Made by a program: the position numbers and the translations under genes. The notes below the pieces were generated by a model. It did no database searches, had not been told where the DNA came from, and saw only the letters and a list, made by a program, of their open reading frames with translations. This document shows positions 20,683-42,439 of a DNA stretch of 64,000 nucleotides, piece after piece. Each line of letters starts with the position of its first letter. The first letter of the stretch is position 1. Source of the stretch: a virus (Duplodnaviria; Caudoviricetes); IMG/VR virus record IMGVR_UViG_3300017909_004107, positions 32,001-96,000 of that record; one strand, given 5' to 3'.

Positions 20683-20686
20683 AAAA

Positions 20687-23648: not shown

Positions 23649-23651
23649 ATA
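23644..23651 (+). promoter_or_regulatory. T4-type late promoter TATAAATA
   Basis: Exact consensus followed by AGGAG and ATG at 23672. Confidence 0.75.
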
Positions 23652-23671
23652 CCAACAGGAGATAAACAAAA

Positions 23672-24457: not shown

Positions 24458-24466
24458 GGAGGTTTT

Positions 24467-24886
24467 ATGCATTTTACAATCACAGAAGCTAGAAACCCTC
24501 AGTGGGTAGACAGCAATCATAATAAAATTGACCTAGAGGTCAACTTTGCCGAGTTAGAGGAAGAGTGGTTACCATACACTGCAGCACCTGATGATGTGTG
24601 TGAACACTCAAGAACTCTATATTCAAAAGCAGTGGCAGGGGATTACGGTACAGTAAGTGACGAGTACGTAATCACAGAAGATGATTTATGGACACCTGTC
24701 ACAGAGATTCAAACATCCGTTTCAAAAGAAGCGTTGGTTCAGATTCTTCTTGAAAAGGGAGTATTATCTGATGAAGATGTTGACGAGATTCTTGTAGATT
24801 CAGAGGTTGCAATTGGTTTCACAAGACCTACTAAAGATGGTTCTAACCCAGTATATCACAGTCCTTTGAGTGGCACTGGAGGTTAG
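24467..24886 (+). CDS. Tail fibre assembly chaperone-like protein
   Basis: ARNPQWVD..IDLEVNF..WLPYTAAPDD..LY..AVAGDYG resembles Tfa-type chaperones; AGGAGG SD. Confidence 0.6.
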   Translation: MHFTITEARNPQWVDSNHNKIDLEVNFAELEEEWLPYTAAPDDVCEHSRTLYSKAVAGDYGTVSDEYVITEDDLWTPVTEIQTSVSKEALVQILLEKGVLSDEDVDEILVDSEVAIGFTRPTKDGSNPVYHSPLSGTGG

Positions 24887-24939
24887 TAATTCAGACTGCT
24901 GAACAAAGCGATAAGTGGCAACACTCTTTTCAGAGGTAT

Positions 24940-25860
24940 TTGGGATTTACTCCCGATACCTCTTTTTCGTTTGGAATTTTGCCGGGTGTGTGTCGTGAAG
25001 CAATGGGTAGGAGAGACTGGATATATACCAACCCACAATTATTTCGCAGCAGCAAGATATACTCATGGAGTGACTTTCATCATAAGAGGTTATGTAAAGA
25101 AGGACGTTCTATTATATCATACTATGGTTCTGCACCATGGTTGTGGGACTTAGATCCAGCAGCAGGTGAAACTGGCGGATCATTGTTTTTTCTACCACGA
25201 GACGATTGTGGTACTATAAGAGACGCTGATATTAACATAGTACAAGATGCGATAGATTCAGCACCAGAACCAATTACTTTCCTGCTGCCATGGCGTTTAT
25301 GTGACCAGTGGAAAAGTTGGGAACAACTGGAAATCCCCAGTCATGCAGATTTTGTACAAATGTCAGATCGTAGTACAAGACAACTTATACTAACAAAACT
25401 ATTCCAACAGCATGAGTATGTGTATCTGCCGTGGGTGGGCACAGATTTATACTACGCCGAATTCCTTGATAAGAAAGTTGTGATTTATGATAGTATAAAG
25501 AACTATAGAAAGAGAACAATAGAGGAGCAGGAAGAAGTGGGCACGAAAAGTTGGATCACCCGTAATTTAGTATGGGGTTATGACTTTCTAAATGACATAC
25601 AAAAGGAGTTTTTACATCATACAGAGAAATGGTACGATATGAGTGAAGACGATAGAAAATTCCTAACATCAAAGATGCTAGGATTAGATGTTTTGAAGTC
25701 TCCTCGTGAATTATATGATGATCTAATTCGTGTCGGATATCTTCACAAAGAAAAGTTTACAAGTAATGAGAAATATGAGGCAAATTATGAGTGGTTGAAG
25801 GAAAAATGTGTAGATTTCACACCAAGTGACCATATTCAGCAATTATACGCAAAATTGTAA
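24940..25860 (+). CDS. Hypothetical protein (possibly glycan-related); start uncertain
   Basis: 306 aa ORF; reading frame is open further upstream; next to the sugar-nucleotide cluster. Confidence 0.5.
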   Translation: MGFTPDTSFSFGILPGVCREAMGRRDWIYTNPQLFRSSKIYSWSDFHHKRLCKEGRSIISYYGSAPWLWDLDPAAGETGGSLFFLPRDDCGTIRDADINIVQDAIDSAPEPITFLLPWRLCDQWKSWEQLEIPSHADFVQMSDRSTRQLILTKLFQQHEYVYLPWVGTDLYYAEFLDKKVVIYDSIKNYRKRTIEEQEEVGTKSWITRNLVWGYDFLNDIQKEFLHHTEKWYDMSEDDRKFLTSKMLGLDVLKSPRELYDDLIRVGYLHKEKFTSNEKYEANYEWLKEKCVDFTPSDHIQQLYAKL

Positions 25861-25937
25861 CATTTGATACCAAACTGCTCCCTCCAGAATCGCCTGTAAG
25901 GTGCCTGTTTTTATCTTTAGGTATGATAGTAACCCCC

Positions 25938-26780
25938 CTATGTTACGTTCCAATCGATCTTCGTGCGAATTTTTTCGTTATATTTCCATATCTCTTTGAA
26001 CATCTTACTATTCAGTCCTACTTCGTCAAACTGAGCAATCAAAGCATTGAGGTCTTTCGGGAAACATGTTCCTCCAAATCCTCTATCATTATCTACACCC
26101 GGAACTTGAGTATGTGAATCTCCTATTCGTGGGTCTGCAACCACACCTCGTCTTACATGTTCATAATCCATTTTATGTTTTTCACAAAAATCATACATTT
26201 TATTAAAGTATGCAACCTTGTATGCTAAAAAGACATTAGAAAAATATTTTACTGTTTCACTTTCATTACTTGTCATATAATGTACATCAGTATTACTAAA
26301 ATAATAATTATAGAATGTTCCTAACTTACTACTATAATGTTGTCTTGCTCCTATGATAGTTCGTGGTGCATCACGAAAATCTTTTACAGCATTTCTTGCT
26401 GTTAGAAACTCAGGATTATGACATACAGTATGACCTAACTCAGCATATTTCTCAGTTGTTCCAACTGGAACTGTAGACTTGATAACATACAAAGGGTCAT
26501 CATAAGCATCATTATCCAACGCTTCAAGTGATTGATATGGGTCTAACTTAGAAAAGAATTCGTCTAAGTATGTCAAGTCACACGTTCCGTCCATTTTCAT
26601 TGGAGTGGGCAAGCAGACAAAAACAATACTTTGCTTCGTTGTTTCTTCAAATGTATTCAATGATCTCAATGGGTCTATATCATATACCTTTGTTTCTACT
26701 TCGTCTCTTACATTCTGATATATTGCATTTCCTACAAATCCATTACCTACGATACCAACAGTTAATCTATCTGAATACAT
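25938..26780 (-). CDS. UDP-glucose/GDP-mannose dehydrogenase-like protein (lacks C-terminal domain)
   Basis: GIVGNGFVG Rossmann motif, FVCLPTP, IKSTVPVGTT, NPEFL, GFGGTCFPKD catalytic motif. Confidence 0.88.
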   Translation of the reverse strand: MYSDRLTVGIVGNGFVGNAIYQNVRDEVETKVYDIDPLRSLNTFEETTKQSIVFVCLPTPMKMDGTCDLTYLDEFFSKLDPYQSLEALDNDAYDDPLYVIKSTVPVGTTEKYAELGHTVCHNPEFLTARNAVKDFRDAPRTIIGARQHYSSKLGTFYNYYFSNTDVHYMTSNESETVKYFSNVFLAYKVAYFNKMYDFCEKHKMDYEHVRRGVVADPRIGDSHTQVPGVDNDRGFGGTCFPKDLNALIAQFDEVGLNSKMFKEIWKYNEKIRTKIDWNVT

Positions 26781-26809
26781 ATTCTATTTGTAAAGTACAT
26801 TATATTATA

Positions 26810-27649
26810 TCACAATGATTCTTCTTTGTCAAGGAAGAAATCAGAATCATTTATTGCTCTATCGTCCACATATATTTTTGCTCTAGGTTTTCCAAAGAAT
26901 AACCTAGTGTATTTTAGACCCCACTCTTTGAGTTGCTTTTCGGTTCGTGACCTGACATGATAGTCTGCTTCTCTTTGTTGAGCAAGTATATCATGAGGGT
27001 ATCGAGTACTACTATGAATGAACCCTCTTGCTGTCATAAGGTATATTGTAGCACCTTCGTCAAAAAGTTTATTCACCTTCTCTATCCTGCTTGGTATGGG
27101 TATTGCTTCAAATGGAGTTCCATCATGAGGTTCAGTCAGAGTTCCATCTATATCAATACAATATACATTATCTCTAACACTCACATCTATATTATTCTGA
27201 ACGATCTTAGGAAGAGTTGGTAAACTGACACCTGTTTGTTGCATCAGCATGTACATTGCATACAACGATCTACATTCAAATTCGTGATAATATGTTGATT
27301 CTATTCTTACTGTTGGTATTATATCGTGATAATCAGGAGCAAATAGTATTACGTTATCAAGATTTACTAACTGTCGGGTAAGTGGACTCTCAACTCTACA
27401 TGTGATAGCAATAATCAAATCAGCACCACCTCGTGCATAATCTAACCATTTTGATTTCCAGTCTCCGTCTCCACCTAAAGCAGTCAGATTGACTGAATCA
27501 GGAGCAAAACAAAACTTTCCTGTATGACGATACATGTCACTTGCCATGTGTTGAGCAATGGCAAGATTTCCTCCTGTACCAATAAGAGCAATACTTCGTG
27601 CTTTTTTGAATTTAGATAATATTTTACTCTCAATGAGAAGATTCATCAT
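26810..27649 (-). CDS. SIS sugar-phosphate isomerase (GmhA-like) fused to HAD phosphatase
   Basis: N-terminal IGTGGNLAIAQHMASDM; C-terminal CIDIDGTL, MTARG, FGKP, YVDDRA. Confidence 0.75.
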   Translation of the reverse strand: MMNLLIESKILSKFKKARSIALIGTGGNLAIAQHMASDMYRHTGKFCFAPDSVNLTALGGDGDWKSKWLDYARGGADLIIAITCRVESPLTRQLVNLDNVILFAPDYHDIIPTVRIESTYYHEFECRSLYAMYMLMQQTGVSLPTLPKIVQNNIDVSVRDNVYCIDIDGTLTEPHDGTPFEAIPIPSRIEKVNKLFDEGATIYLMTARGFIHSSTRYPHDILAQQREADYHVRSRTEKQLKEWGLKYTRLFFGKPRAKIYVDDRAINDSDFFLDKEESL

Positions 27650-28386
27650 AGTTTAGACTCTACCTCCTGTATGTGGTGTGGACGATCAACTGATCTTATT
27701 TTACCACAATTTAGGTCGTATGGTACAACATTATATTTGCCACAGAACCCAATAGTATCTAGACCTTTCCAATATTTGACAATACCCATATCACAATTAG
27801 GAAAGTCACGAATTACATTTATTTTATACAGATAAAAACCTAACTGAACAATAATATTATCGCACACTATTTCACATTTTCTCATCATATTCGTTATTAC
27901 ACCATTATTGCATATCATTTTTACTACATCTTCGTCTTGTATATCGCTTTGTTCTAACTGTCTCATTGGTTGCACCATATCACACTGATGCCTGACACCA
28001 AACTTTATTACCTGATCTAACCAGTCAGGTTGAGTTAGCGGTTCGTCTCCCTGCAAATTAAGAATGTAATCACTTTCCACATTTTGAGATACCTCTGCAA
28101 CTCTATGAGTGCAAGTGTAGTGTTTTCCTGTAAGTCTGGATTCATAACCCTCCTTTTTGCAAAGATCGACAATTTCGTGATCTTCGGTAGCAACAATAAC
28201 ATTGTCAATATATTTAGACTTTCGTGCAATGTCGGCAACCCTGAGAACCATTGCTCTATCGTGTATGAGAGCAAGTGGTTTTCGTGGAAACCTAGATGAC
28301 GACAGTCTAGCAGGGATTACACATGTAATCTTCTGACCTAGATACATAATTTTTCTCTTGTATAGATATGATAACAGTGGTTGCAA
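27646..28386 (-). CDS. kdsB: CMP-Kdo synthetase-like cytidylyltransferase
   Basis: VIPARLSSSRFPRKPLALI, VATED, THRVAEV, LNLQGDEPL, SVDRP. Confidence 0.8.
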   Translation of the reverse strand: MQPLLSYLYKRKIMYLGQKITCVIPARLSSSRFPRKPLALIHDRAMVLRVADIARKSKYIDNVIVATEDHEIVDLCKKEGYESRLTGKHYTCTHRVAEVSQNVESDYILNLQGDEPLTQPDWLDQVIKFGVRHQCDMVQPMRQLEQSDIQDEDVVKMICNNGVITNMMRKCEIVCDNIIVQLGFYLYKINVIRDFPNCDMGIVKYWKGLDTIGFCGKYNVVPYDLNCGKIRSVDRPHHIQEVESKL

Positions 28387-28428
28387 AATATTGCAACGTG
28401 GAATATTATATAGAATTACAGTTTATCT

Positions 28429-28704
28429 ATGAGAAGAATCAATTTAGGAGACATTGTAACGTCAGGAAACGATACTGGCGAGGTCTGTTTTGTTTCTACT
28501 CATTATTTTTGTATGTGTGTTAGAATGGGGGAGATCGCATTGAATGATGTAAAAATAGTTGTATCCAGAACAATAGACAACTTTGAGATTATACGCAAGG
28601 TGGAGAGTGACAGTTTAGAAAGTGTCACAAAAGAAATTGAAAAGAAATACATGTACAATAGAGTTAGATCAAATCAAAAATGGAGAGTTCCTTATGTTAT
28701 CTGA
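28429..28704 (+). CDS. Hypothetical protein
   Basis: 91 aa ORF at the start of the + strand early block. Confidence 0.5.
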   Translation: MRRINLGDIVTSGNDTGEVCFVSTHYFCMCVRMGEIALNDVKIVVSRTIDNFEIIRKVESDSLESVTKEIEKKYMYNRVRSNQKWRVPYVI

Positions 28705-28867
28705 GAACGAGTACAATCTCATTTGTTATTGTTTAGAACATCAACTATATGAGTTCACACCTGAAGAGAGAAATGATGCTAATAATATAGTAGTCAAATT
28801 ATCAGAGCATGTGACACTTGACAAACTGGCACATAGGCACGAGCGTAGAGATTTAGACACACTATAA
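28694..28867 (+). CDS. Hypothetical small protein (likely ATG at 28694)
   Basis: In frame with ORF 28622..28867; GGAGAG upstream. Confidence 0.4.
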   Translation: MLSENEYNLICYCLEHQLYEFTPEERNDANNIVVKLSEHVTLDKLAHRHERRDLDTL

Positions 28868-28889
28868 TGATAGTATAACAACAAAGATT

Positions 28890-31145
28890 ATGACAGTATC
28901 AATCGAAATCAAAGGTAATCTTGCTAAACTTCTAGCAACTGAAGACCTTATCATAGAGCATAAACCAGTCGAGACAGCATCATTTGATGTTGACAGAAGA
29001 GTACTTACTCTACCTGTATGGGATAGAGCAAGTGAGACTGTTTACGATATGCTAGTGGCACATGAGGTGGGTCATGCCCTATACACACCTAATAGAGAGT
29101 GGTTCTTAGAACCAGAGTGGAAAACAATACCAAAGGATTATGTCAATGTGGTTGAAGATGCTCGCATTGAAAGACTTATCAAGCAAAGATACAGAGGTCT
29201 CAACAGAGATTTCAAAAATGGATACAATGAATTACATAATGATGATCTATTTGAATTATCAGATCAGAATGTAAATCATTTGAAACCTATTGACAAAATC
29301 AATCTATACTTCAAGATCGGTGGTTACATTGACATTGAGTTCAATGACACTGAGAATGAGTTTGTGACCAGAATATCTAAATGTCAAACATTTGACGAGG
29401 TACTTGTTATATCTAAAGAGATACATGAGTACACTAAAGAAATGCAAGAGCAAATGCAGAAGCAAGCAAATGCCGAGCAAAAAGAGTCCGAAGCACAAGA
29501 TAATGGCAAAGTCGAGTCCAGACCTGACATGTCAAAATCTAATGATGATACTCAAGCACAAAAAGATGAGCAAAAAACTGATACTCAAGGAGAACCAGAA
29601 GAAGAACCAGTACAAAGTAGATCAGACAAATCATTTCCTGATGAAGTAGATGATACTGAACAGGAACAGAAACAGGAAGAGATACAGAATTCTGGGGATA
29701 CTCAAGGTGGAGAGTTCGGAGACATCAATACTGCTACAACTCAGAGATCACTTGATGAGAGTATTGAAGACTTGACCAACACATATAAAGATCAAGTGCC
29801 TACACAATATGTTACTATCCCGAACATGGTTTTGGATAAAGTTGTTGTTGATTTCAATACTATCAAGACATATCTTGATGAACATTTTGTCAAGGAAAAT
29901 ACTACTGACTCATCAAATCAATTCTTGATCGAGCATACAAGAAGATTCAATGATTTCAAGAAGTCCAGTAACAAAGAAGTCAACTATCTTGTCAAAGAGT
30001 TTGAAATGAAAAAATCAGCAGACTCATATTCTAGACAGGCAACAGCAAAGACTGGTATGCTTGACACATCTAAATTGCACACATATATGTACAATGAAGA
30101 TATATTCAGAAAGGTAACAACAATACCTGACGGAAAGAATCATGGTCTTATATTTGTTCTGGACTGGTCAGGTTCAATGAACAGTATACTTGAAGATACT
30201 CTCAAGCAATTATTTCAATTAGTCTGGTTCTGTAAAAAGACTCAAATCCCTTACGAGGTCTACGCTTTTACAAATGATTCATGGCAATTAGGTAAGAGTG
30301 ATGATAATGCTGACCAACCACATTCATCATACAGAAGTGCATCACAGGAAATTCTGGTTGATAAGTGGAAAGAGGGAGACATCAATATTGATGGGTATTT
30401 CCGTATGGTAAACATATTATCATCTAAGGCAAGAACCAAAGATATTGAAAAGCAAATGCTAAACTTGTGGTTGACAAACTGTAGTTTCAAGTATCACTAC
30501 AATCATCATTTCCCACACCCTGCTAAGTTTCATCTATCAGGCACACCATTGAATGAAGCAATCATTTGTACTAAACAATTAGTCAAGCAAATGATGAAGA
30601 AAATCCAGAAGGTACACGTTGTTATCCTGACTGATGGAGAAGCACATCAACCTAGTTACAATGTTGACAGATCAAAATTACATGATGGTTATGGTCTAGA
30701 TCATAAGGGTACAAGATCAATCAATTCAACTTGTATGTTGAGAAATCGTAAGTCAGGAAAGACTTACGGATTGACCTATAGTAATTGTTCATTGAAACTC
30801 ATTGAGTGCATCAAGGACGATCTACCTAATGTCTCATTCATTGCTTTCAGAGTGGTTGAGAGGGGTGGTATGAGATATGTCTGGACTCAGTATGGTATGG
30901 AGACATATCCTGATTACGAGGTCATGAAAGAGCAAATCAAGAAAGGCAATCTTTCACTCACATTGAACTCATACGATAAATTCTTTATGATACCACAGCA
31001 TCATCTAAGTGTGGACTCAGATCAACTAGAACAAGTTGAAGAGGGTGCATCTAAGGGAGAAGTCTCAAAGGCATTTCGTAAGATGTTCAAAAACAAAAAG
31101 ACTAACAAGTTTATGCTCTCAGAGTTTGCGAAAGCAATCGCATAA
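28890..31145 (+). CDS. CobT-like protein: HExxH metallopeptidase-like domain + acidic linker + vWA domain
   Basis: AHEVGHAL, NVVEDARIE, FVLDWSGSM (MIDAS), SGTPLNEA, ILTDGE; partner of the downstream AAA+ ATPase. Confidence 0.85.
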   Translation: MTVSIEIKGNLAKLLATEDLIIEHKPVETASFDVDRRVLTLPVWDRASETVYDMLVAHEVGHALYTPNREWFLEPEWKTIPKDYVNVVEDARIERLIKQRYRGLNRDFKNGYNELHNDDLFELSDQNVNHLKPIDKINLYFKIGGYIDIEFNDTENEFVTRISKCQTFDEVLVISKEIHEYTKEMQEQMQKQANAEQKESEAQDNGKVESRPDMSKSNDDTQAQKDEQKTDTQGEPEEEPVQSRSDKSFPDEVDDTEQEQKQEEIQNSGDTQGGEFGDINTATTQRSLDESIEDLTNTYKDQVPTQYVTIPNMVLDKVVVDFNTIKTYLDEHFVKENTTDSSNQFLIEHTRRFNDFKKSSNKEVNYLVKEFEMKKSADSYSRQATAKTGMLDTSKLHTYMYNEDIFRKVTTIPDGKNHGLIFVLDWSGSMNSILEDTLKQLFQLVWFCKKTQIPYEVYAFTNDSWQLGKSDDNADQPHSSYRSASQEILVDKWKEGDINIDGYFRMVNILSSKARTKDIEKQMLNLWLTNCSFKYHYNHHFPHPAKFHLSGTPLNEAIICTKQLVKQMMKKIQKVHVVILTDGEAHQPSYNVDRSKLHDGYGLDHKGTRSINSTCMLRNRKSGKTYGLTYSNCSLKLIECIKDDLPNVSFIAFRVVERGGMRYVWTQYGMETYPDYEVMKEQIKKGNLSLTLNSYDKFFMIPQHHLSVDSDQLEQVEEGASKGEVSKAFRKMFKNKKTNKFMLSEFAKAIA

Positions 31146-31225
31146 ACCAATCATCAAAGTGGCACATTGCTTATTGCATTGCCACTTTGCCCCAATTACA
31201 ATAAACACATAAGCAATCAATCATT

Positions 31226-32356
31226 ATGCCAAGAACAATCAACTTTGAACCACACTTTGATGCAATCACTTCTAAGTATGGTCAGGAACTAGATGCTGAT
31301 ATGGTCAAGGAGTATGTTGCAAACAATCCTGACGTATCCTATCAGACTGTCACTAAGTACCTAAACAAATGGAAAATATCTAGAGGTAAGTGGAATATCA
31401 AGACACCACAACAAGAGACTCAGATACCAACTGCTACATTCCAAGTACAGCAACCACAATCAACTAAACTCACAAAGACTGAGAAAGTTGAACAGAATCT
31501 TATCCCTGCAAAGGATAACACATTCATTCCTTTTGGCAACTTCCCTGCACTCAAGAAAGTAATCGCATCTAGGGAGTTCTATCCTACATTCATCACTGGT
31601 ATGAGTGGCAATGGTAAGACATTCGGTGTTGAGCAAGCATGCTCTCAGTTGAACAGAGAACTTATCAGAGTCAACATTACAGTCGAGACTGACGAGGACG
31701 ATTTGATCGGTGGTTTCAGACTTGTCAATGGTCAAACAGTATGGCACAATGGTGCTGTTGTTGAAGCGTTAGAGCGTGGTGCAATCTTATTACTTGATGA
31801 GATCGATCTAGCATCAAACAAGATACTATGCTTACAACCCATACTAGAGGGCAAAGGTCTGTTTCTCAAGAAGATTGGCGAGTACATCAAACCTGCTAAA
31901 GGATTCAATGTCATTGCTACTGCTAACACAAAGGGTAAGGGTTCTGATGATGGTCGTTTCATAGGTACTAACATACTCAATGAAGCGTTCCTTGAGAGAT
32001 TCCCTATCACATTCGAGCAAGAGTATCCTACAGTCGTGACTGAGAAAAAGATACTTACAAGATTATGTGAAGAGATCGGCATACCACTTACAGGAGATCA
32101 CAAAGGATTCATTGACTACCTATGTGACTGGAGTGATATTGTAAGACGTACATTCAAAGACGGTGGTGTTGATGAAATCATATCCACTCGTAGACTCGTT
32201 CACATCATGAGAGCATATCAAATCTTCGGCGATAAAGTCAAAGCAATGCAAATGTGTCTCAACAGATTTGATGACGAGACTAAAGAGTCATTCATGCAAC
32301 TCTATACTAAACTAGACGAGCATATCAAGTCAGAAGAGAATGTTACCGAGTCGTAA
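31226..32356 (+). CDS. cobS: CobS/MoxR-family AAA+ ATPase
   Basis: Walker A GMSGNGKT, Walker B LLLDEID, ATANTKGKG, NEAFLERF, STRRL. Confidence 0.92.
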   Translation: MPRTINFEPHFDAITSKYGQELDADMVKEYVANNPDVSYQTVTKYLNKWKISRGKWNIKTPQQETQIPTATFQVQQPQSTKLTKTEKVEQNLIPAKDNTFIPFGNFPALKKVIASREFYPTFITGMSGNGKTFGVEQACSQLNRELIRVNITVETDEDDLIGGFRLVNGQTVWHNGAVVEALERGAILLLDEIDLASNKILCLQPILEGKGLFLKKIGEYIKPAKGFNVIATANTKGKGSDDGRFIGTNILNEAFLERFPITFEQEYPTVVTEKKILTRLCEEIGIPLTGDHKGFIDYLCDWSDIVRRTFKDGGVDEIISTRRLVHIMRAYQIFGDKVKAMQMCLNRFDDETKESFMQLYTKLDEHIKSEENVTES

Positions 32357-32363
32357 CATTCCC

Positions 32364-32392
32364 TTGACAGGGTAAACCAAACCTGTCATAAT
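32364..32392 (+). promoter_or_regulatory. Sigma70-type promoter TTGACA-N17-CATAAT
   Basis: Read directly; embedded in the TGACAGG/CCTGTCA inverted repeat. Confidence 0.75.
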
Positions 32393-32474
32393 GAGTATGT
32401 CAGTCAAGGTTTTGATTGATGACTGTTGACTGACAAACTCTTTCGAGTCCTGTCGTATGACCTAAAACTAGGCA

Positions 32475-32714
32475 TTGAAAACTTACAACATTATGATTAT
32501 GCAAATCACAGGTTCTTCCGCTATCGCAAACGTAAACTTCAAAGACGCTAGTCTTGTTGGTATCACATTCACATCACAAGATACTGAATATGATTTCCTT
32601 GCGAAGGATTCAAACCTTGTTCGTAATGAACTAAGTAATGCTATCTCTAAGGGAGACAGCGTTGGTAAGTTGATCGCTTCATACAGAAGAGAAGGTCAAC
32701 TAACAGAAGTGTAA
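32475..32714 (+). CDS. Small KTSC-like protein (true start probably a downstream ATG near 32493-32499)
   Basis: SSAIANVNF...VGITFTS..EYDF...LSNAISKGDSVGKLIASYRR resembles the KTSC pattern. Confidence 0.5.
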   Translation: MKTYNIMIMQITGSSAIANVNFKDASLVGITFTSQDTEYDFLAKDSNLVRNELSNAISKGDSVGKLIASYRREGQLTEV

Positions 32715-32770
32715 TCTAGAATTACACAAAGACAATTGAATATTTTGATACTAGCATAATCTCGCAAAGC

Positions 32771-32797
32771 AAACCCACTCACAAGGTGGGTTTTCTT
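32771..32797 (+). terminator. Intrinsic terminator
   Basis: AAACCCAC-loop-GTGGGTTT followed by TCTT. Confidence 0.65.
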
Positions 32798-32877
32798 ATG
32801 CCAATTTATATACTGGTACGAACTGGTTGTTATAGCATAACAATTATACTATAATGAGTATATCAATCAAACATACA

Positions 32878-33402
32878 ATGATTACAGCAAAAGACATTTT
32901 ACAATTCAAGACACACAAAGTTTCTCTACAAGAAAGTAAGAGTTGTATCTACAATGGTAGTCCGTTTCAAATCTACAAACAAATGAGTAGTAAGAAGAAA
33001 GGGGCAAGGTTCGAGGGTATTGTACAAGAGTATTGCACAAACTTAGGATACAAAGTTACAAAACCAGATAACTCAGATCATGATAGAAAGATCAACAATA
33101 TCAAGGTTGAGATCAAGGGTTCAATGTTATGGTCTAATCCACAGTTTTTCCGTTGGCAACAATTACGACCGCATCAAGATTATGATGTTGTTATATTCCT
33201 TGCAATATTCCCACAACAAATAGAATTCTATGGGTGTACAAAACAAGATATAAAAGATCATCTTGAAATACAGGACGAGAAGGGCAACTGGATACACAAC
33301 CAACATGGAGGACTCAAGGTCAACTCAGGCACATTCTTTTTGGATAGTGACGGTCTAACCATACCCACATGGTTCAAATCAATCAAAGAGGTATTACAAT
33401 GA
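32878..33402 (+). CDS. Putative PD-(D/E)xK restriction-type endonuclease
   Basis: KGARFE...DHD...KVEIKGS...FRWQQLRP.QDYD; ATG 32878 follows promoter -10 at 32850; ATGA overlap with the MTase. Confidence 0.65.
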   Translation: MITAKDILQFKTHKVSLQESKSCIYNGSPFQIYKQMSSKKKGARFEGIVQEYCTNLGYKVTKPDNSDHDRKINNIKVEIKGSMLWSNPQFFRWQQLRPHQDYDVVIFLAIFPQQIEFYGCTKQDIKDHLEIQDEKGNWIHNQHGGLKVNSGTFFLDSDGLTIPTWFKSIKEVLQ

Positions 33403-34187
33403 AACTCAACACAATTACAAACTCAGACTGTTTGAAGTATCTAAAGAAACTACCAGACAACTCAGTTGATCTCGTATTGACTGACCCGCCATACTTCATA
33501 GGATTTGACGGTGGTAAGGGTTGGGATAGTCAATGGAAGAGTGACAGGGAGTACATTCAATGGTGTATAGAGTGGACTAAGGAGTGTGTCAGGGTACTCA
33601 AGGACGAGCGTATGCTCGTTGTATGGGGTACTCTCAAGACTGAAGCGTTCTTGCTATACAAACTAGCACTCAATCGTATGGAAGGTATCAAACCACAGAA
33701 TGAGATCATTTGGTCTTATAACTGGGGTGGTAGGTCTAAGGATAACTTTGCTCGTAAACATGAGTATGCTTGGTGCTATTCGACAGGTGATAAATTTTTA
33801 TTCAACGGTGATGATGTAAGAATTGATCGTAAGATGAATACTAACATAAGAACTGGATTACAGCATACAAAGGGAACTATACCAACATGTGTATGGGAGA
33901 AGAACAATCACACAACCAGTAAGGACTATATCGGTTGGCATGCTACAACTAAGAACATTGATATACTGTCAAGAATAATCAAGGCATATACAAATGTCAA
34001 TGATGTGGTTCTGGACTGTTTCATGGGTTCTGGAAGTACAGCAGTTGCAAGTATCAGGACTGGACGTAACTTCATAGGGTGTGAAAGAGATAAAGAATAC
34101 TACACAAAGGCAAAGAAACGTATTTGTGACAGTCAAAAAAGTGACACTAAAAACTTGTCTAAGGCAAGTCTAGCGTCTATACTATAG
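33399..34187 (+). CDS. Beta-class N6-adenine/N4-cytosine DNA methyltransferase
   Basis: TDPPY catalytic motif precedes LDCFMGSGST SAM-binding motif; start 33399 overlaps the nuclease stop. Confidence 0.92.
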   Translation: MKLNTITNSDCLKYLKKLPDNSVDLVLTDPPYFIGFDGGKGWDSQWKSDREYIQWCIEWTKECVRVLKDERMLVVWGTLKTEAFLLYKLALNRMEGIKPQNEIIWSYNWGGRSKDNFARKHEYAWCYSTGDKFLFNGDDVRIDRKMNTNIRTGLQHTKGTIPTCVWEKNNHTTSKDYIGWHATTKNIDILSRIIKAYTNVNDVVLDCFMGSGSTAVASIRTGRNFIGCERDKEYYTKAKKRICDSQKSDTKNLSKASLASIL

Positions 34188-36525
34188 ACATGTACAGGAG
34201 TTACACCTATGAGACAATTCACAGTTTCAGCACTTCTTGAAGGATATAGGGTGGAAGAGACTGTAACAGCAGTTTCTATTCATCATGCTATCAGAATCAT
34301 GAAGGCAAAGTATGGCAATTCTGCTAGAAACATTTACGTCCTAAACTAATCAATCAAATGAACAGAACTAAACAACAACTTCAGAGAGACATTCAATTCT
34401 GCAGAAATGTCTTAGGTCTTACTGACGAGCAAACCGATCAAATGATTATGGTCTGCGACAAATTGAAAATAGGTGCAGAGTATTTCTCAGAGGAATTCGT
34501 ATTCGAGGGAGACGGTATTCAATCTATTATCAGACTCAATGACCCTGACTATCTCAAAATCACATGGAGACTAGAATGAAACTAGACATCAACAAAGAGG
34601 AACAGCAAATCTTATTAGATGCTATGATGTTCTACTTCACATTCTACTATTACAATACAAAAGGTCATACAACAGACAACCTCGTTGACCAGTATAGTGT
34701 ATGGTATGAGAAACTCACTCGTCAAGAGACAAAATCAATTTTTGAAAAGGTATTTCATGGAACTTAGAAAAGATAGCTAGGTCAATTCAAAGACTGACAC
34801 ACAATCGGTTGCTATTCTATTGTAACCGATTATTATAATACTATAGCAATCAATCAATCATGGCAATGACACCTCGACAATTCATGGAAGAAGTTTACGA
34901 GATAGCGTATGGCGATCAAGCATACTATCGTGGTTTCTTTCCAGAAGAAGTGCTAGAAACACTCAGAGAATTTTCAGATAATGCTCTCAAGGTCGAAGAG
35001 TTGAGTCTAGAACCCGAACAGTATGAAGACATGGATAGGCAACTCGAAGAGTCTTACCGCAGAGGATACATGGACGGTCGTAAATTTGCATTACAGCAAC
35101 AAGAATCATGAAACAGTACACTATTACAGCAATCAAAGAGTATGAATACACTAAGACAGTTTTCGCTGAAAACCTCGTTGATGCACATGTCAAGGCATTT
35201 GAGAAACCAGAAGACCCAGAGGACGATTGGCAACTTATTACTGACCCTGACTATGATGACCACAACCCTTACAACATTTCACTAATTGAGGAATCATGAC
35301 TCTACCATTGAAAACAGTCACTTACACATTTGATGAACTACACGCTTTTAGCGAACACGTTACTTGGTGCATCATGGAACAAGATCAACCAGTAGATGAC
35401 AACCTACAATCGTTTATCGACAAAACTTTATACGATAATCAATTATGAAAGTCTACACTCTACTATTGACAGAAGGCGAGATCAATTCGTTGAAAGATCG
35501 TCTTGAGTCAGACAACTACGTCAATTATGACAATGATCTCAAATCAGTAGTTGAAAAGATCGGGTATTTCTTTGAACCCGAAAACACTTACAATGACATT
35601 CCTGAGAGGTATTGAACATGGACAAACTAACTAAAGAACAATTTGACACACTCAAAGAGTTATATGTTGAAAGACTCGTTGATAATATGTCAACAAAAGA
35701 CCTCGTGAATTATGTTATGACTGACTTATCAGAGTGGGTTGACGGTCTCGGATATACTGAAGCAATGAATGAATTTGAGAACTACTGGCAAGAATACTTC
35801 ACAGATACGATAAATGAGGTGCTAGAGGGTCAGATATAAAAGTGTCATCATATCGTTGACTTATAGTATCATAACGTTTATTATAAGAGTAATTCAATCA
35901 ATCACATGAACTCAGGAACAGCAGAAAGAGATCTAAACCAAGAACTCAAAGATTTTATCGATTATGTTTTTTCGTTTTATGGAGACGTTGACCCTGTTTA
36001 TCCTATGAGAAAAGTTATTGGAGACGCTCCACTCAATAAGAGTGATATTCTAGATGCTACCTATGACTACCTATCAGCAATTTCTAAGAGAAATTCTGAG
36101 ACTTACACATGGGGCGAGGGCGATAGTCTTGATCGTGAAAGAGTGAGAGATATTCTATTACAGAATTACGATTTCTACCTCGTTCATTTACAGCATGGTA
36201 ACATTTGATACCATAGCAGAAATTCGTTGAAATTGGTAGTTGACATACTCAAGACTACCATATAATATAAAAGTAATCAATCAATCAAACAATCATGGCA
36301 AAAACAAAACTAATCACAGTTGACGGATTCACACTAGATGAGCGTTACAGAGTCAGTTTACAATGGTGCGGTCACGCTTATCCATTATGGGTTGCAACAT
36401 TTTGTGATGATGAGATTCTAGGGTGGTATAAAACTGAAGATGAAGCGAAAACCGCATGCCTAGTTTATAGAAAATCTCAAGTCAAGTCACTCAATTTTAC
36501 TTGGGACTAATCAATTTCGATTATG

Positions 36526-36567
36526 GTATCATTTGATACAACATTATGATACCATAACCATTATAAT
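36526..36567 (+). promoter_or_regulatory. NtcA-type promoter
   Basis: GTATCATTTGATAC-N22-TATAAT. Confidence 0.75.
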
Positions 36568-36754
36568 AGAAACATCAATCAATTCAAAAACTATGATCCA
36601 ATTAGGCATGTATGTAAATCACAAAATCCATGATGATCTCAACGGAAGTGAGGTTATATTATTGGATAGAGTGACTAATACCGCAGTCATAAAAAACTGG
36701 TTCGACGAATTTGATTTTCAGACTATAGAAGTATTTTTATCAGATTTGGAAATG

Positions 36755-36796
36755 GTATAATCTGATACAACACAATAATACAATACCCACTATAAT
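36755..36796 (+). promoter_or_regulatory. NtcA-type promoter
   Basis: GTATAATCTGATAC-N22-TATAAT. Confidence 0.75.
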
Positions 36797-37177
36797 AGAA
36801 ACATCAATCAATCAATCAATCACTATGGACGCTTATCAAAAAAGAATTCTCTACGCTATCAACAAAAGAGAATCATGCAGTCTAAGAAATCACGTTACAG
36901 TATGGAACAGTTATCATACAGGCAACGAATTTACAAGTGCTATCAGAGTACAAAACAAGACAGTTGCAACTGTTCACTATAAACTTAGTCATGATGACCT
37001 ATCTGTCAACATACATGGGGGAACATCAAAAGATTTTGATGATATGATGAAAAATGATAAATGGGAGATCGAAGAGTTATTTGTAAATGAGCAGGCAGTT
37101 CAACGTTGTTTAGGTACTCAGGCAAGAAGAGTTGTAAATTTCTTGAATCAGGCACTTTTTACCTAATTTCTAAAATG

Positions 37178-37219
37178 GTATCAAATGATACAACATTATG
37201 ATACCATAACCACTATAAT
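37178..37219 (+). promoter_or_regulatory. NtcA-type promoter
   Basis: GTATCAAATGATAC-N22-TATAAT. Confidence 0.75.
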
Positions 37220-38072
37220 AGAAACATCAATCAATCATTATTATGTTTGTAATTTACACCAGTCCAGTCAAATTTACGACTGACGAAAATCACGCTCGCA
37301 TTATTGCTGAAGATCACTTTCAGCAAACTCGCGAAATAGTTGCTATCGAAGAAATCGATACAACAAAAGAATTTTATACAACATCACTATAGGAGGTTTT
37401 TACAATGTCAGTTTTACATCATGAGGGCATACTTGAAACTTGTTTTGAAGATGCTTATGAGTCTTTCAGAATCGAAAACAATTATACAATTTCAGAAATG
37501 GAAGATTTGTATATTGAGAATCAAAACCTTAGAATGAGACTAGAAGAAGTTGCTACACAGTTATTTGAGGATAAATGCCAGTAACTAACCAATTCTATAA
37601 ATCATTCTCTCAAATCGGAATAGGGGATAAAGTCAAGTATCTCACAATAGATTATCAGGTTATCATGAGATTTGACACTAATGAATGTGTTGTATTACAT
37701 AATGATCTAGGCAATATTTCAACCTATAACTGGGAAGAACTTGAAATAATTGACCTAATGAATGAGTAACTCATATTTTACTTGTTTAGAGAGTCGAAAG
37801 AAATTTATTGACATTCGACTCTTATCCACTATAATGTAAGTAAATCAATCAATCACTCAAATGTTCACAAAAACAACTAAGTCTCAAGCGATCGAACAAT
37901 TCAAGTATAATTGGAAGGTTTACACGCTAAGATGCAAACGTGAAGGTTTACCAGTCACAAAACTAGCAAAAGTTTTTGCATGGAATGATTATACTGAATT
38001 TCTTGCAAGTGATGGATACATTACTGAATGGCAAAGAGCAAACTGGACAAATCCCTACGAATATCGAAATTA

Positions 38073-38114
38073 GTATCGAATGATACTAGACAAACGTCCA
38101 GAATCCACTATAAT
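38073..38114 (+). promoter_or_regulatory. NtcA-type promoter
   Basis: GTATCGAATGATAC-N22-TATAAT. Confidence 0.75.
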
Positions 38115-38497
38115 AACAGTATAGCAATCAATCAATCAATCAATCATGACAACACTAAAATCAATTCTACTCGACGCAATCAATCAAGACTTAGAATCAA
38201 GCGATTACTCTAACAATGCTATACTCGATAATACTGACTCTAAAAACTGGTCAGACTCAGATAAATTTGAATGGTGCTTCGATCGCTACATGATCGAGGT
38301 AGGTGGTTATGAAAGTCTAGAATATTGGTTTTCAGGTTTAGCACTTAGTGGAATTCCATTTACATATTATGAGATCGGAAAGTTAGGATTCAATACTGAT
38401 ACATTCTTTCAAGATTTATCTGACGAATTGCAGAGAATTACAGGATACAGCGATAGAAAAGCATATAAGAGAAAGTTGAGAGCATAAAAAAAGATAT

Positions 38498-38536
38498 AGG
38501 GAACTGGTTGACAGTTCCCTTTTTTTCCCTTATAAT
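38498..38536 (+). promoter_or_regulatory. Consensus sigma70 promoter overlapping an intrinsic terminator
   Basis: TTGACA(38508)-N17-TATAAT(38531); AGGGAACTG/CAGTTCCCT stem followed by a T run. Confidence 0.85.
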
Positions 38537-39022
38537 AAAGTATATCAATCAATCAATCAAAAAAATGGAATTCAATCTTACTGAACTTACAAACAAGTCT
38601 TATATCTGGAGTACATTTTCAAAAGTGTCTCAAGATACATCTCTCATCATGAGAATGAATTGCACACAAAAGAGTGGTAACACAGAAACAAGAGTCAGGC
38701 AAGACGGTAGTCGTATTGTAGACGTATTTCTACATGGTAACCTCATCTGTTCATACAATCCTACAAACTACGATAATCAGAAAGTCAAATTATTCTCAGC
38801 AGGTTACTACACAAAAACAACAAAAGAACGACTCAATGCAATTTTACACTTACATACGAATGGTAAGGTTAGAATCGTACAAGTTAGAGGTAAGTGGATA
38901 GTCAGAGATTCAAATACTGGTGCAGAGATCAATTTCTACGACGGCATGGTAGTATTTCAAAAACCTCTAACACTAGCAGATATTGAGGAAACAAAACAAT
39001 TAGAATTTATACCAGTATAGGG

Positions 39023-39051
39023 TTGACATACTCACATATAACCCTTATAAT
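39023..39051 (+). promoter_or_regulatory. Consensus sigma70 promoter
   Basis: TTGACA-N17-TATAAT. Confidence 0.85.
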
Positions 39052-39598
39052 AAAGTATATCAATCAATCACTAATCAATCATGAATTTATTTGATGCAGT
39101 TCCAGTAGTAGTCAAAGAAAGATACGACGGTTATGTAGTAGGCGATTCTATTTCAACTAAAGACTTTCAATCAACTATGAATGAGGTTATCGACCGTTGC
39201 GAAAACTTTACAAGAGAAACACTTGACTCACAGACATACATGCAAATTAGGAGAATGGTCAGTAATGCTATCGACCTATTGCTACATGATAGGAGGACAT
39301 TCGACAGCATGATGACTGACATACTTATAGATGATTTATGGAGTTAGGAGGGCGTTACGCAAAATGAAAGAAATATCATTATAAATCTAAAAGTGTTATT
39401 TCTTTCATTCTCTTAGCGGTCATCTTATAAAAGTCAACCAAACTTCACAAAATCCACACAATTCTCCCAGATTCGTGATTATGACAGTATCGTGTAATTT
39501 TTCGTTTATTGAATCGTCCTTACATCATCGTCCACACTTTGAGACAGTTATGCAGGATTTTGAAAAAAGCAAATTGTTACATAATCCAAACAAAAGGG

Positions 39599-39627
39599 TT
39601 GACAGTATGACAAACACGCATTATAAT
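39599..39627 (+). promoter_or_regulatory. Consensus sigma70 promoter with no sizeable downstream ORF
   Basis: TTGACA-N17-TATAAT. Confidence 0.85.
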
Positions 39628-39632
39628 AAAGG

Positions 39633-39785
39633 CATGGGAAGGAGGTTTTAGTTAGCACTGGCAAACAGTTAGGATAAACCACCCGACCAACTCACACGAT
39701 ACCCGAAGCGAGGGGAATCGAATCAGACAGTTATAAACAGTTCTGGGCGGTTCTCCCCGTTTTTTTATGGGGGGCGGTGCCCGTT
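39633..39785 (+). ncRNA. Candidate structured non-coding RNA
   Basis: GC-enriched, several hairpins, only a 5-codon ORF after a perfect promoter. Confidence 0.4.
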
Positions 39786-39886
39786 ATTAAAACAATGGGT
39801 CCTTCTAACCTACAAACGTTTCCAGACGCGAGAGTGATATCGACTTTCAGTTACATCAAATATCAAAATTTTTTTCGGATATAAAA

Positions 39887-40498
39887 TTACCCCACACCCC
39901 GATCATATGCATAGTGTACGTATGGACCTTGTGCATTGACATAATGAAAGAAGATCTGATGATGATATGAGTCTTTTCCTGTAAGAGGTTCTCTCCAATG
40001 ATCTCTTTCACACCCTTTGTATAATACCATATCTCCATTCTTCATACTAACAGAGTTTTCTGTATGATCTGGCAGTTCAAACCATATCGGCCATGCTTCA
40101 TCACGATTGGTGCTGATTTGTACTGTTGCACTGATCTCACAGGATGGTCGATCATGATGTCGAGTCAGTTCCTGTCCCTCATAGTAAAACCGGTCAAAGT
40201 AATATGTGGGCAATAAGTCCATACTCAGAATACCTTCGATCTTTTTCATTAAGGAGTAATGTGTTCTCTTATAGAATGGATGATTGTATCTTGCTAAAGA
40301 ACCATTGACCTGTGGTTCGACTGAATTGAACTCTGTCTTTTGATGTCGAAAGTGTCTTTCAATTCCAGTGATTCTTTGACCCTCTTTGTCAACAGGCGGT
40401 GAGCAGTAAAGACTTTTGAAGTCAACTGCATCAGGAACATAAAGATATCCAGTCGTATCAAATTGTTTTCTTATTTCCATCTTGGACCTACCACCCAT
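39887..40498 (-). CDS. 2OG-Fe(II) oxygenase-like protein
   Basis: LTRHHDRPSCEISAT (HxD), GDMVLYKGC..HWREPL, HQIFFHYV; true start probably MEIRKQ. Confidence 0.8.
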   Translation of the reverse strand: MGGRSKMEIRKQFDTTGYLYVPDAVDFKSLYCSPPVDKEGQRITGIERHFRHQKTEFNSVEPQVNGSLARYNHPFYKRTHYSLMKKIEGILSMDLLPTYYFDRFYYEGQELTRHHDRPSCEISATVQISTNRDEAWPIWFELPDHTENSVSMKNGDMVLYKGCERDHWREPLTGKDSYHHQIFFHYVNAQGPYVHYAYDRGVG

Positions 40499-41088
40499 CC
40501 TACGATACTCTTACGAAGTCCCTCTTTGACCTTTCTGACTCGGTGACGAGTTCTTGAATCAAAGACAATCATCGTGCCTCTCTGTTTAGGTGCCAAAAAT
40601 CTTTGACCTTCACTATCTAAGAATTCAACCTCTCCTCCTCTGTAATCTGTGGGGTCGGATAATTGTAGAGTAAATGAGAGTTTCCTGACATATTCTCCTG
40701 CTTGAATCATTTCCTCCTTTGCTCGATTTGCTCCTGAACGGAAATTTTCTTGTGGTTTATGATAAGTATCTAAAACTGTATCTGAGTGCCAAGTGTAATA
40801 TTGTCCTTCCTGATAATGAGTATATTGTAGAGTTTGACTGTCAATATCTATAATGTCGTATAAAAAGTTATCACGATTAATTTTAGAGACATAATACCAT
40901 AGATACCCACCTATCCAGTGTGATGTGGGGATCCATGTATTCTGACTGTTACGAATGAAGTTATTACTATAATCGCCCTTCAACAGAGAAGGTTGAACAG
41001 ATGTATCAAATTTCTTGATGTCATTCTCTAAAATGTCAATCACTTCAACTGGAAGTTCAGTAAACTCCCAACATACACTATTCGCCAT
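40471..41088 (-). CDS. 2OG-Fe(II) oxygenase (prolyl-hydroxylase/PKHD type)
   Basis: YTWHSD, RKLSFTLQLSDP.DY.GGE, HRVRKV..GLRKSIVGW..GP. Confidence 0.9.
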   Translation of the reverse strand: MANSVCWEFTELPVEVIDILENDIKKFDTSVQPSLLKGDYSNNFIRNSQNTWIPTSHWIGGYLWYYVSKINRDNFLYDIIDIDSQTLQYTHYQEGQYYTWHSDTVLDTYHKPQENFRSGANRAKEEMIQAGEYVRKLSFTLQLSDPTDYRGGEVEFLDSEGQRFLAPKQRGTMIVFDSRTRHRVRKVKEGLRKSIVGWVVGPRWK

Positions 41089-41719
41089 GATTCAATAGAT
41101 AATCTGCAATTTTTTGATGAGCAGGTTCGAGTGGGTGAGTTTCATCTTCTCCAAGAGGACCTTCTTTATATGTATGTCCAAGCATTTGAGCCCATATCCA
41201 GTGATGCTTCATTCTACAAAGTTGATACCAGTAACTTTGCTCATGCATCCAATATCTCTTCTTCTTATTATCACCGCAACAATCAGCAGATAGGAATATG
41301 AGTGGAGTACGATAGTCTACAGCATTTTCAATCAGAAACTTATTCTTATACATGTTCTCAATACCGAGTTGTCGATTGTAGACCCACTTATAATATCTTC
41401 TTCCCTCATAATAATACTTTTCTTCCCTTTTCCGTCGTTCCATCATCTGTATTCTGAACTTGTGAGTATCATTTTCAGTGAAATACTCTAATCGACTTGG
41501 TATTGTAAGTTGAACATAGATTCTATCATATCTTCTTTTTCGAGTCTCTTCAACAGTTCTTCGGGCAATCCAATCATTACTCTGACCACACTCAGCAATG
41601 TTATGTTCATTTGCCCCCAAAGCATCACAGACAAGTTTACTGTAACGTGTATTCAATCGGTCTTTCAACTCATCACCCCATGTGATGCTACATCCTACAA
41701 ATAAAAAATCCATCAGCAC
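41078..41719 (-). CDS. SGNH/GDSL-like hydrolase or acyltransferase
   Basis: FVGCSITWGDEL block I, GQSNDWI, C-terminal THP...H..IA. Confidence 0.65.
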   Translation of the reverse strand: MLMDFLFVGCSITWGDELKDRLNTRYSKLVCDALGANEHNIAECGQSNDWIARRTVEETRKRRYDRIYVQLTIPSRLEYFTENDTHKFRIQMMERRKREEKYYYEGRRYYKWVYNRQLGIENMYKNKFLIENAVDYRTPLIFLSADCCGDNKKKRYWMHEQSYWYQLCRMKHHWIWAQMLGHTYKEGPLGEDETHPLEPAHQKIADYLLNHGE

Positions 41720-42276
41720 ATATTGAAAGAAATAGAGATACGTTTGTCTTCACTCATATTAGGTGAGACGTAATGCTCTAACCAAGATGGAAAGATATAA
41801 AGAGATGATTCACGGGCAGGCATTATACGTCTTGATGATGTGTAATTAGTCAGTTCTTCTTCGACAGTATCATAGTCCCAATCATGATTCATATGTGTCG
41901 CCGGATTACATAATACAAGATCTCCACAGTTTTCAGGTGTCTTCACATAGTATACTCCAGATAACATGCAACGACTGTGAATGTGTGAAAGATTGCTGTC
42001 TTTATATCCATTTATATTGATCCAGACATCAGTAAGTTGAGTGGGTTTCAACCCAATAAGTTTTGCCATCTTATTTGAATGGTGTATAATATTTTCAAAT
42101 AGATCATTCAACATAGGTATCGTTCCAGTTAGAGGATTTGATTGATATCCGCCAGAATTAGATATAGTGCGACCTTCATCTTTTTTTGAGTGATGTACAC
42201 AATATAAGGATATTGCCTTATTGTCTAGTTTGAGTTCAGTTTGATATACAGGTGTTTTGAATACATCATTTATCAT
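41713..42276 (-). CDS. Putative 2OG-Fe(II) oxygenase (TIGR02466-like)
   Basis: SNSGGYQS, WININ, HIHS..LSGVYYV, IFPSWLEHYV, RISISFN. Confidence 0.85.
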   Translation of the reverse strand: MINDVFKTPVYQTELKLDNKAISLYCVHHSKKDEGRTISNSGGYQSNPLTGTIPMLNDLFENIIHHSNKMAKLIGLKPTQLTDVWININGYKDSNLSHIHSRCMLSGVYYVKTPENCGDLVLCNPATHMNHDWDYDTVEEELTNYTSSRRIMPARESSLYIFPSWLEHYVSPNMSEDKRISISFNMC

Positions 42277-42277
42277 A

Positions 42278-42439
42278 TTAGAAAGATGCCTCCTCTACAC
42301 ATACTTCATCATAGCATACAGTGTATGTAATGTCTTCTTTCCAGTATGAAGTGTAAAGTTTATTCCATATGAGACCAAACTCTTCAAGTGTGAGATTTTT
42401 GAATAGAACTTTTTCTTGAAAGTAAATGTGATAAGTCAT
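42278..42439 (-). CDS. 53 aa hypothetical protein (not in ORF track)
   Basis: Own translation MTYHIYFQEKVLFKNLTLEEFGLIWNKLYTSYWKEDITYTVCYDEVCVEEASF; ATGA overlap with the sulfotransferase. Confidence 0.65.
   Translation of the reverse strand: MTYHIYFQEKVLFKNLTLEEFGLIWNKLYTSYWKEDITYTVCYDEVCVEEASF

Follow-up and report, generated by a model that had tools for sequence, protein, structure and literature searches.

The stretch studied here is a window of 64,000 nucleotides from the virus record IMGVR_UViG_3300017909_004107, and its subject is a block of genes, behind host-type promoters, from which several short DNA words have been lost. TTAA is absent from positions 28062 to 39786 of the window, with sites only at 28058 and 39787, as a preliminary description of the window had reported. 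That description proposed a single system targeting TTAA. A TTAA-only system is insufficient as the whole story, because CCGG, GGATG, GGTGA, GGATC and CGATG also vanish over the same 14.6 kb, here called the island, and further words are missing from the islands of relatives.

The loss of these words from the early region, with the remaining genome keeping them, implies that early island DNA is much more vulnerable to DNA-cutting defences than the rest. We favour, with about as much confidence as doubt, the explanation that this desert is an intensified form of restriction-site avoidance, acting on DNA needed before protection exists. Most scores of restriction-site avoidance are taken over whole genomes. 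In this case what counts is where a site lies, and the loss is complete for TTAA (0 of about 75), with four to seven further words lost as well. Such deserts offer a sequence-only route to the early anti-defence region of uncultured phages and to the nucleases that a lineage currently faces. They also open to testing how T4-like cyanophages with unmodified DNA withstand host restriction, and how they break down host DNA while sparing their own.

Missing words and the layout of the island

Positions refer to the window unless stated otherwise. The window covers bases 32001 to 96000 of a single viral contig of 120,973 bp, with an estimated completeness of 61%. This contig is labelled G000, and its relatives are labelled G001 to G006 or as loci of an L-series.

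The gap between the TTAA at 28058 and the next at 39787 measures 11,729 bp, and the second-largest TTAA gap in the whole contig is 2,334 bp. Expectations for the block range from 48 (Markov model) to 114 (composition), so that the earlier estimate of roughly 100 was of the right order. Codon usage of the remaining genome gives 75. The absence also withstands the comparisons proposed in the preliminary description, namely synonymous shuffling (0 observed against 60 +/- 6) and the AT-only controls AATT (71 against 79 expected) and TATA (52 against 59), which are close to expectation. GATC is normal in the block, and AT-rich tetramers overall are about twofold low. Chance, codon usage and amino-acid composition are ruled out as causes by three nulls.

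TTAA is depleted in the remaining genome too, with 282 sites against 695 expected (ratio 0.41; 0.1 to 0.8 by region). The TTAA-free block is thus the extreme of a genome-wide tendency, not an exception against a normal background. Counting confirmed the stretches with frequent TTAA that had been noticed by eye, at 1-7 kb, 42.4-43.2 kb and 51-64 kb.

An unbiased comparison of all 4-, 5- and 6-mers between the block and the rest revealed four asymmetric words that are depleted in the block and have a ratio of about 1 elsewhere. These are GGATG+CATCC (0 against 12.5 expected), GGTGA+TCACC (2 against 16), GGATC+GATCC (1 against 12) and CGATG+CATCG (1 against 11.7). Pooled, they occur 5.7 times per kb genome-wide; about 83 sites would be expected in the island, and it has 5. 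No CCGG lies between 26100 and 40189 (14.1 kb), an interval coincident with the desert, and the word is over-represented elsewhere in the contig. Its loss is modest under a protein-preserving null (0 against 4.3 expected); by the rate in the remaining genome it is 0 against 15.6, and pooled over five islands 0 against 15.7. The absence of GCAGC from the block is largely a matter of protein composition (0 against 2.4 expected) and was not counted.

GGATG, GGTGA, GGATC and GCAGC are type IIS sites, and TTAA, AGCT, CCGG and TCGA are 4-bp sites; the enzymes known for these words include FokI, HphI, AlwI, BbvI, MseI, AluI, MspI and TaqI. CGATG matched no enzyme known to us.

All four asymmetric words are depleted in both orientations, and the neighbouring words AGATG, TGATG and GATGA are not depleted. 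Because asymmetric words are missing in both orientations of a block whose genes lie on one strand, selection acts on double-stranded DNA, not on RNA. An RNA-level cause had been the first option of the preliminary description: a UUAA-specific endoribonuclease that early messages escape. The desert does cover the early transcripts. It also spans intergenic DNA, with promoters, spacers and the terminator region, and it enters an oppositely transcribed unit; moreover, middle and late messages retain UUAA. We reject this option as extremely improbable. A Shine-Dalgarno-like character of GGTGA and GATCC was weighed as a reason for avoiding them and ruled out, as GGAG is not depleted and the relatives G003 and G006 keep these words.

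Beside the desert, the whole 121 kb has next to no AGCT (13 sites), GGCC (9), GCGC (1), CGCG (17) or AGCC/GGCT; AGCT stands at 0.04 of the codon-shuffled expectation. This genome-wide avoidance concerns RGCY-like words plus GC-only palindromes and is of the classical kind.

The features of the island are as follows.

28062-39786, no strand: TTAA-free interval, with 0 TTAA against 60-75 expected by codon-preserving nulls
25557-40141, no strand: multi-word restriction-site desert (the island), about 14.6 kb, from pooled GGATG, GGTGA, GGATC and CGATG on both strands
25938-26780, minus: UDP-glucose/GDP-mannose dehydrogenase-like gene, third of the leftward unit (PF00984, PF03721)
26804-26832, minus: perfect sigma-70-type promoter (TTGACA-17-TATAAT, with TG) of the gene at 25938-26780
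26810-27649, minus: SIS/phosphoheptose-isomerase-like gene, second of the leftward unit (weak PF01380; phrog_1238)
27646-28386, minus: cytidylyltransferase, first gene of the leftward unit (PF02348), containing the last TTAA before the desert (28058)
28387-28428, no strand: 42-bp divergent junction of the two early units
28429-28704, plus: open reading frame (ORF) of 91 amino acids (aa), opening the rightward unit; conserved in relatives
28890-31145, plus: 751-aa "peptidase" (phrog_459), the clade marker
31226-32356, plus: CobS-like AAA+ (AAA_5) ATPase
32854-33402, plus: putative 182-aa PD-(D/E)XK restriction-type nuclease (P0001), with invariant D77, E86 and K88; predicted fold
33369-34187, plus: 272-aa beta-class N6/N4 DNA methyltransferase (PF01555, 1e-49), overlapping the nuclease gene
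34209-39651, plus: about 18 small ORFs (50-170 aa) in cassettes, including a Kyano_Gp96 protein (38508-39020)
39652-39886, no strand: convergent intergenic region with a terminator-like hairpin (39745-39762) and the first TTAA after the desert (39787)

The leftward unit consists of three sugar-nucleotide genes (25938-28386) and the rightward unit of about 24 ORFs (28429-39651); both outer borders of the island are convergent junctions. Small, presumably early genes lie behind consensus sigma-70 promoters of the host type in two inversely oriented units, according to the promoters and gene map. Each small-ORF cassette carries a near-consensus sigma-70 promoter and an (ATCA)n leader, with example promoters at 35856, 36240, 37808, 38087, 38508, 39023 and 39599. 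The core of T4-type late promoters, TAAATA, does not occur on the plus strand of the block. The match between the TTAA-free block and early genes driven by host sigma-70 and NtcA, claimed in the preliminary description, holds for the sigma-70 part, as the host-type sigma-70 genes coincide with it; NtcA-type sites (GTA-N8-TAC) are not enriched (7 of 46).

The (ATCA)n leaders, for example ATCAATCAATC, lie directly 5' of the start codons of small early ORFs, in the spacers of 34188-39080. Of the 34 contig copies of ATCAATCA, 30 are inside the island, and the leader is not shared by the relatives G003 to G006. It is a lineage-specific leader, and perhaps a translation signal without a Shine-Dalgarno sequence. 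In public contigs, whole small-ORF cassettes between 32400 and 38600 are often inserted, deleted or swapped from strain to strain, with joints such as 32799/33411, 35893/36277 and 36295/36803.

The phage, its relatives and continuing selection

The contig encodes T4-type baseplate wedge, hub, tail-tube cap and tail-fibre proteins, together with the cyanophage markers Kyano_Gp96 protein, CobS and the phrog_459 peptidase. The sister contig G004 carries TerL (a gp17-type terminase), portal and capsid protein, and the sister contig G005 carries gp43 polymerase, gp55, RegA and psbA. Because of these T4-type structural genes, the gp17-type terminase and the cyanophage marker genes, the phage is identified as an uncultured marine T4-like cyanomyovirus (Kyanoviridae-like). 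The closest isolates are only about 40% identical in the peptidase. Near-identical DNA is found in seawater metagenomes and metatranscriptomes from 11 studies, and the clade is widespread in seawater.

In at least six related lineages the island keeps its syntenic position, with the tail-fibre module on one side and a block of auxiliary genes on the other; the contigs and loci concerned are G001 to G006, L039, L041 and L045. Peptidase identity to the studied contig is 86% in G001 and G002, 55% in G003 and about 46% in G004, G005 and G006. The genes of the island and its flanks are similarly diverged and give the same tree shape.

In terms of TTAA, the islands of G004, G005, G006 and G003 have 0, 0, 2 and 2 sites against 55, 63, 79 and 58 expected. 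For AGCT plus AGCC/GGCT, the same four islands have 0 of 58, 0 of 58, 4 of 49 and 0 of 42; outside the islands of G004 to G006, the ratios are about 0.1-0.25. In the relatives' islands AGCT/RGCY vanish, and TCGA is partly depleted. Both TTAA sites of G003 sit in a single 155-aa ORF (L003; G003rc 65323-65790) that has no homologue in the studied contig, and this ORF looks like a recent insertion that is still unpurged.

The set of GGATG, GGTGA, GGATC and CGATG is missing in G000, G004 and G005 and present in G003 and G006, a distribution that cuts across the peptidase and CobS trees. L038, a sister of G004, retains the GGTGA, GGATC and AGCT deserts but has 29 GGATG and 17 TTAA. L041 contains GGATG and CGATG, both missing in its sisters. 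Words are gained and lost singly, as expected if each corresponds to a separate nuclease.

Selection against TTAA in the island is continuing. Among synonymous single-base differences in island genes, about 7 new TTAA are expected between G000 and G001 and about 12 between G000 and G003, and none is seen. Where an island TTAA would arise by a synonymous change, the neighbouring codons differ. The remaining genome has 52 TTAA-creating synonymous changes against 59 expected, which is near-neutral.

These counts bear on a purely historical origin, in which the island came from a lineage avoiding the words genome-wide and has no special vulnerability today. Deserts do occur in related phages, as described below for S-RIM32 and AG-345-D19, and some relatives are TTAA-poor across 18-20 kb or more. 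However, such a mosaic origin is unlikely for the island because no new synonymous TTAA has appeared there, with near-neutral gain elsewhere. The island is also syntenic and diverged like its flanks at 46-55% identity, yet has 0-2 TTAA, and the only two sites in G003 share one novel ORF. We consider history alone largely refuted and give it very little credence.

Proposed exposure of early DNA and the explanations weighed

In the explanation we favour, island DNA would have to stay intact and be transcribed by the host sigma-70 RNA polymerase before the phage is protected. A cut in the island would always be fatal, and sites elsewhere would be shielded or would meet nucleases later; the island-encoded methylase or other early proteins may provide the shield. 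Each nuclease met, the host's or possibly the phage's own island enzyme, would remove its word from the island, and once the pressure lapses the word would drift back. The desert, its borders, its action at the level of DNA, its conservation, its turnover and the continuing selection are observed; we infer nucleases as the agent, and likewise their identity and the reason why the remaining genome is spared.

Several points weigh against this explanation. No mechanism was found that spares the remaining genome. The 61% of the genome at hand has one DNA methylase, too few for five to eight words. None of four cultured Kyanoviridae (S-RIM32, Syn1, S-CAM1 and DSL-LC02) has an early-gene island. 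Mosaicism can produce deserts too. S-RIM32 (NC_031235.1) has TGCA deserts at 92764-107235 and 173183-183153; TGCA (4.2 per kb genome-wide) is nearly absent there from a 10.5-kb tail-fibre gene and three genes for giant virion proteins. This late-gene desert is probably mosaic or compositional. In AG-345-D19, a virus from a picocyanobacterial single cell, the AGCT desert starts 7 kb left of its early block: within 12825-25610 of this locus (L029, MH319720.1), AGCT ends abruptly inside a tail-fibre-like gene and is absent for 12.8 kb through late genes and the early block.

The genome ends also count against it. The terminase of the sister contig is 71% identical to the T4-type gp17 of S-RIM32, and such a terminase predicts headful packaging and a circularly permuted genome with no fixed first-entering end. 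It reinforces the caution on circular permutation voiced in the preliminary description, and it challenges the usual explanation by first-entering DNA. We estimated depth from exact-match assembled contigs of one metagenome, which makes it indirect evidence on genome ends. Depth is 5.6-6.5 in the block, 5.8-6.8 to its left and 8.3-9.6 to its right, with no twofold rise over the island, and contigs bridge both island borders. The lack of a twofold rise and the bridging contigs argue against a terminal repeat like that of T5 or SPO1; the island does not appear as a long terminal repeat at a fixed end, as the T5-type region does. Contig ends fall inside the island in 8 of 12 relatives; they were dropped as candidate physical ends, since repeated promoter cassettes and strain variation may explain the assembly breaks.

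Candidate physical causes for the exposure of the island are staged entry despite T4-type machinery and a greater accessibility of transcribed DNA. Further candidates are a race between cutting and resealing, and selection for an island that survives, as a module, the loss of the remaining genome. We tentatively entertain, as a minority possibility, that in a headful T4-like phage early DNA is still selectively vulnerable to restriction, either through T5-like staged delivery or through a cut-and-reseal race in which a cut is fatal only in promptly transcribed DNA. Such a race would explain three tiers of avoidance. Blunt-cutter words (AGCT, GGCC, RGCY and CGCG) are avoided everywhere, TTAA and TCGA partly, and type IIS words only in the early units. 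The unique overhangs of type IIS cuts can only rejoin correctly. The enzymes for AGCT, GGCC, RGCY and CGCG are blunt cutters.

In the middle of the desert lies a conserved pair of genes for a nuclease and a methylase. The nuclease ORF (32854-33402) has no Pfam match. Its family occurs in more than 100 marine viral clusters, and D77, E86 and K88 are invariant in 22 homologues. The structural model has a pLDDT of 90.8, and its top structural matches are all restriction or homing endonucleases of the PD-(D/E)XK type (I-Ssp6803I, NhoI, EcoRV and PvuII); the ORF is thus predicted to have a PD-(D/E)XK catalytic core. The closest solved relatives of the PF01555 methylase are M.MboIIA, M.RsrI and CcrM, and no second DNA methylase turned up in the 121-kb contig. 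An unrelated 175-kb phage (L031) has the pair as well, and so do G005 and G006, which add a second PF01555 methylase. In S-RIM32, gp042/gp041 are annotated as restriction enzyme and methylase and lie beside psbA (184306-185576). At the nuclease position of G004 there is a non-homologous 213-aa nuclease-like ORF with a D..EYK motif, with the TTAA desert kept; a profile comparison of this ORF with the nuclease family showed no similarity. Two of the five word sites surviving in the island are GGTGA in the methylase gene (33786 and 33807; genome 65786 and 65807), and surviving GGTGA/GGATC sites of relatives are also in or beside methylase genes (G004 53332 and 53343; G005rc 126240).

This pair is the basis of an alternative that we consider rather unlikely, in which the desert reflects immunity to the phage's own system. 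The island nuclease would cut at TTAA, for instance in degrading host DNA, and the methylase coupled to it would protect the phage. TTAA would have been purged where methylation is unreliable, first around the genes that encode the enzymes. Besides the position of the pair, its recurrence in unrelated phage contexts and the S-RIM32 annotation are consistent with such a role. Strong TTAA depletion occurs only in loci with a methylase at least 63% identical to this one (14 of 38, against 0 of 26 other loci), and AG-345-D19 has normal TTAA in its early block and no nuclease-methylase pair in its sequenced part. However, five to eight words are absent together, more than a single enzyme can account for, and they come and go independently in relatives that keep the pair. 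A nuclease homologue is not predictive of TTAA depletion, which is found in 8 of 18 loci with one and 6 of 20 without. No TTAA desert accompanies the homologues of distant phages (L031-L033), and L031 and L032 have normal TTAA. Nor does this alternative account for a risk to virion DNA, methylated one cycle earlier, that is confined to the island. The preliminary description had suggested, as one option, an MseI-like nuclease encoded inside the block. This option is partly supported, since genes for a nuclease of the restriction type and for a methylase do lie there; across loci, TTAA depletion correlates with the methylase subfamily and not with the nuclease homologue. The phage's own nuclease may contribute the TTAA component of the desert, and self-immunity may explain the partial depletion of TTAA genome-wide.

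Selection may instead act on the island as a module, which would survive when host enzymes or the nuclease of a co-infecting phage destroy the remaining genome. The surviving island would then be expressed, disarming the cell for later related phages, or be recombined into another genome, and would evolve to be cut by nothing. This reading would also hold for a permuted genome. The two units of the island form a self-contained pair in which promoter and leader cassettes recur, and cassettes have been inserted or deleted among strains. The island also encodes a nuclease and a methylase of its own, and the sets of missing words are union-like and vary by lineage. On the other side, the equal divergence and shared tree shape of island and flanks make inheritance look vertical, and purging of this strength (0 of 75) would require frequent co-infection or sequential infection. 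We regard module-level survival, and the expression or transfer that would follow it, as improbable.

The remaining option of the preliminary description was a modification or bound protein at the words that hinders host RNA polymerase, so that the words would be removed from DNA read by the unmodified enzyme. The borders do match the units driven by host polymerase, and AT-rich tetramers are low in the block. However, the same core enzyme also transcribes middle and late genes, and one methylase cannot mark so many words. We know of no case in which methyl groups stop bacterial RNA polymerase, and the absolute loss of TTAA with mild losses of AATT and TATA fits a sequence-specific nuclease better. 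This option is highly improbable.

Known systems and neighbouring DNA

The logic of early DNA that is exposed to cutting has been demonstrated by experiment in T5-like and T7-like phages. The closest parallel comes from T5-like phages, where restriction-modification systems act only via sites in the first-step-transfer DNA (PMC10644984). Like the island, the corresponding block of T5, BF23 and other Tequintavirus measures about 10-15 kb, or 6-8% of the genome, and has small genes, host promoters and two inversely oriented units. Restriction words are absent from the island and kept in the remaining genome, and T5 likewise keeps its sites outside the block; destruction of host DNA is encoded in the block, a further likeness to the island. 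T5 differs in being a siphovirus with fixed ends, and its block, a 10-kb terminal repeat, enters the cell ahead of the rest and by itself. The island belongs to a T4-like phage with a gp17-type terminase; its depth is not doubled, and it lacks a long non-coding stop region. Searches against PHROG and Pfam gave the island proteins no name that points to T5 pre-early proteins.

A second parallel is the leading region of Autographiviridae. In the T7-like Murciavirus, the first-injected region decides restriction sensitivity (PMC12455610). Here too the position of sites in early DNA, not their count in the genome, is decisive, and the leading region is variable and rich in anti-defence genes, like the island. 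These phages differ in their fixed ends and transcription-coupled entry, and the system shown is of type I; the island concerns 4-5 bp type II and IIS words, has divergent early units and belongs to a genome that is probably permuted. Leading regions of conjugative plasmids show no consistent depletion of short palindromes (PMC13478746). They share with the island that they are the first DNA to act in a new cell and are enriched in anti-defence genes, and differ in that depletion in the island is total.

In classical avoidance, phages lose restriction sites evenly over the whole genome. Words of the same type are lost here, and the contig also shows this avoidance for AGCT, GGCC, GCGC and CGCG; the island adds a second, much stricter tier that is confined to the early region.

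Chloroviruses encode type II restriction-modification systems. These systems and S-RIM32 gp042/gp041 resemble the predicted pair of the island, in that a lytic virus encodes a small PD-(D/E)XK nuclease whose translation is coupled to that of a beta-class methylase. To our knowledge, no virus-encoded type II restriction-modification system is known to create a local desert.

As for the DNA around the island, the minus strand to its right (39887-43239) encodes a ferrochelatase-like protein (phrog_2954) and three 2OG-Fe(II) oxygenase-like genes, and TTAA is dense from 42.5 kb. Upstream of the window, at genome positions 59-28659, 37 genes of about 250-300 aa each follow one another on the same strand. 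This run is low in TTAA (0.15-0.35 of expectation) and high in CATG, whose density varies fivefold along the contig.

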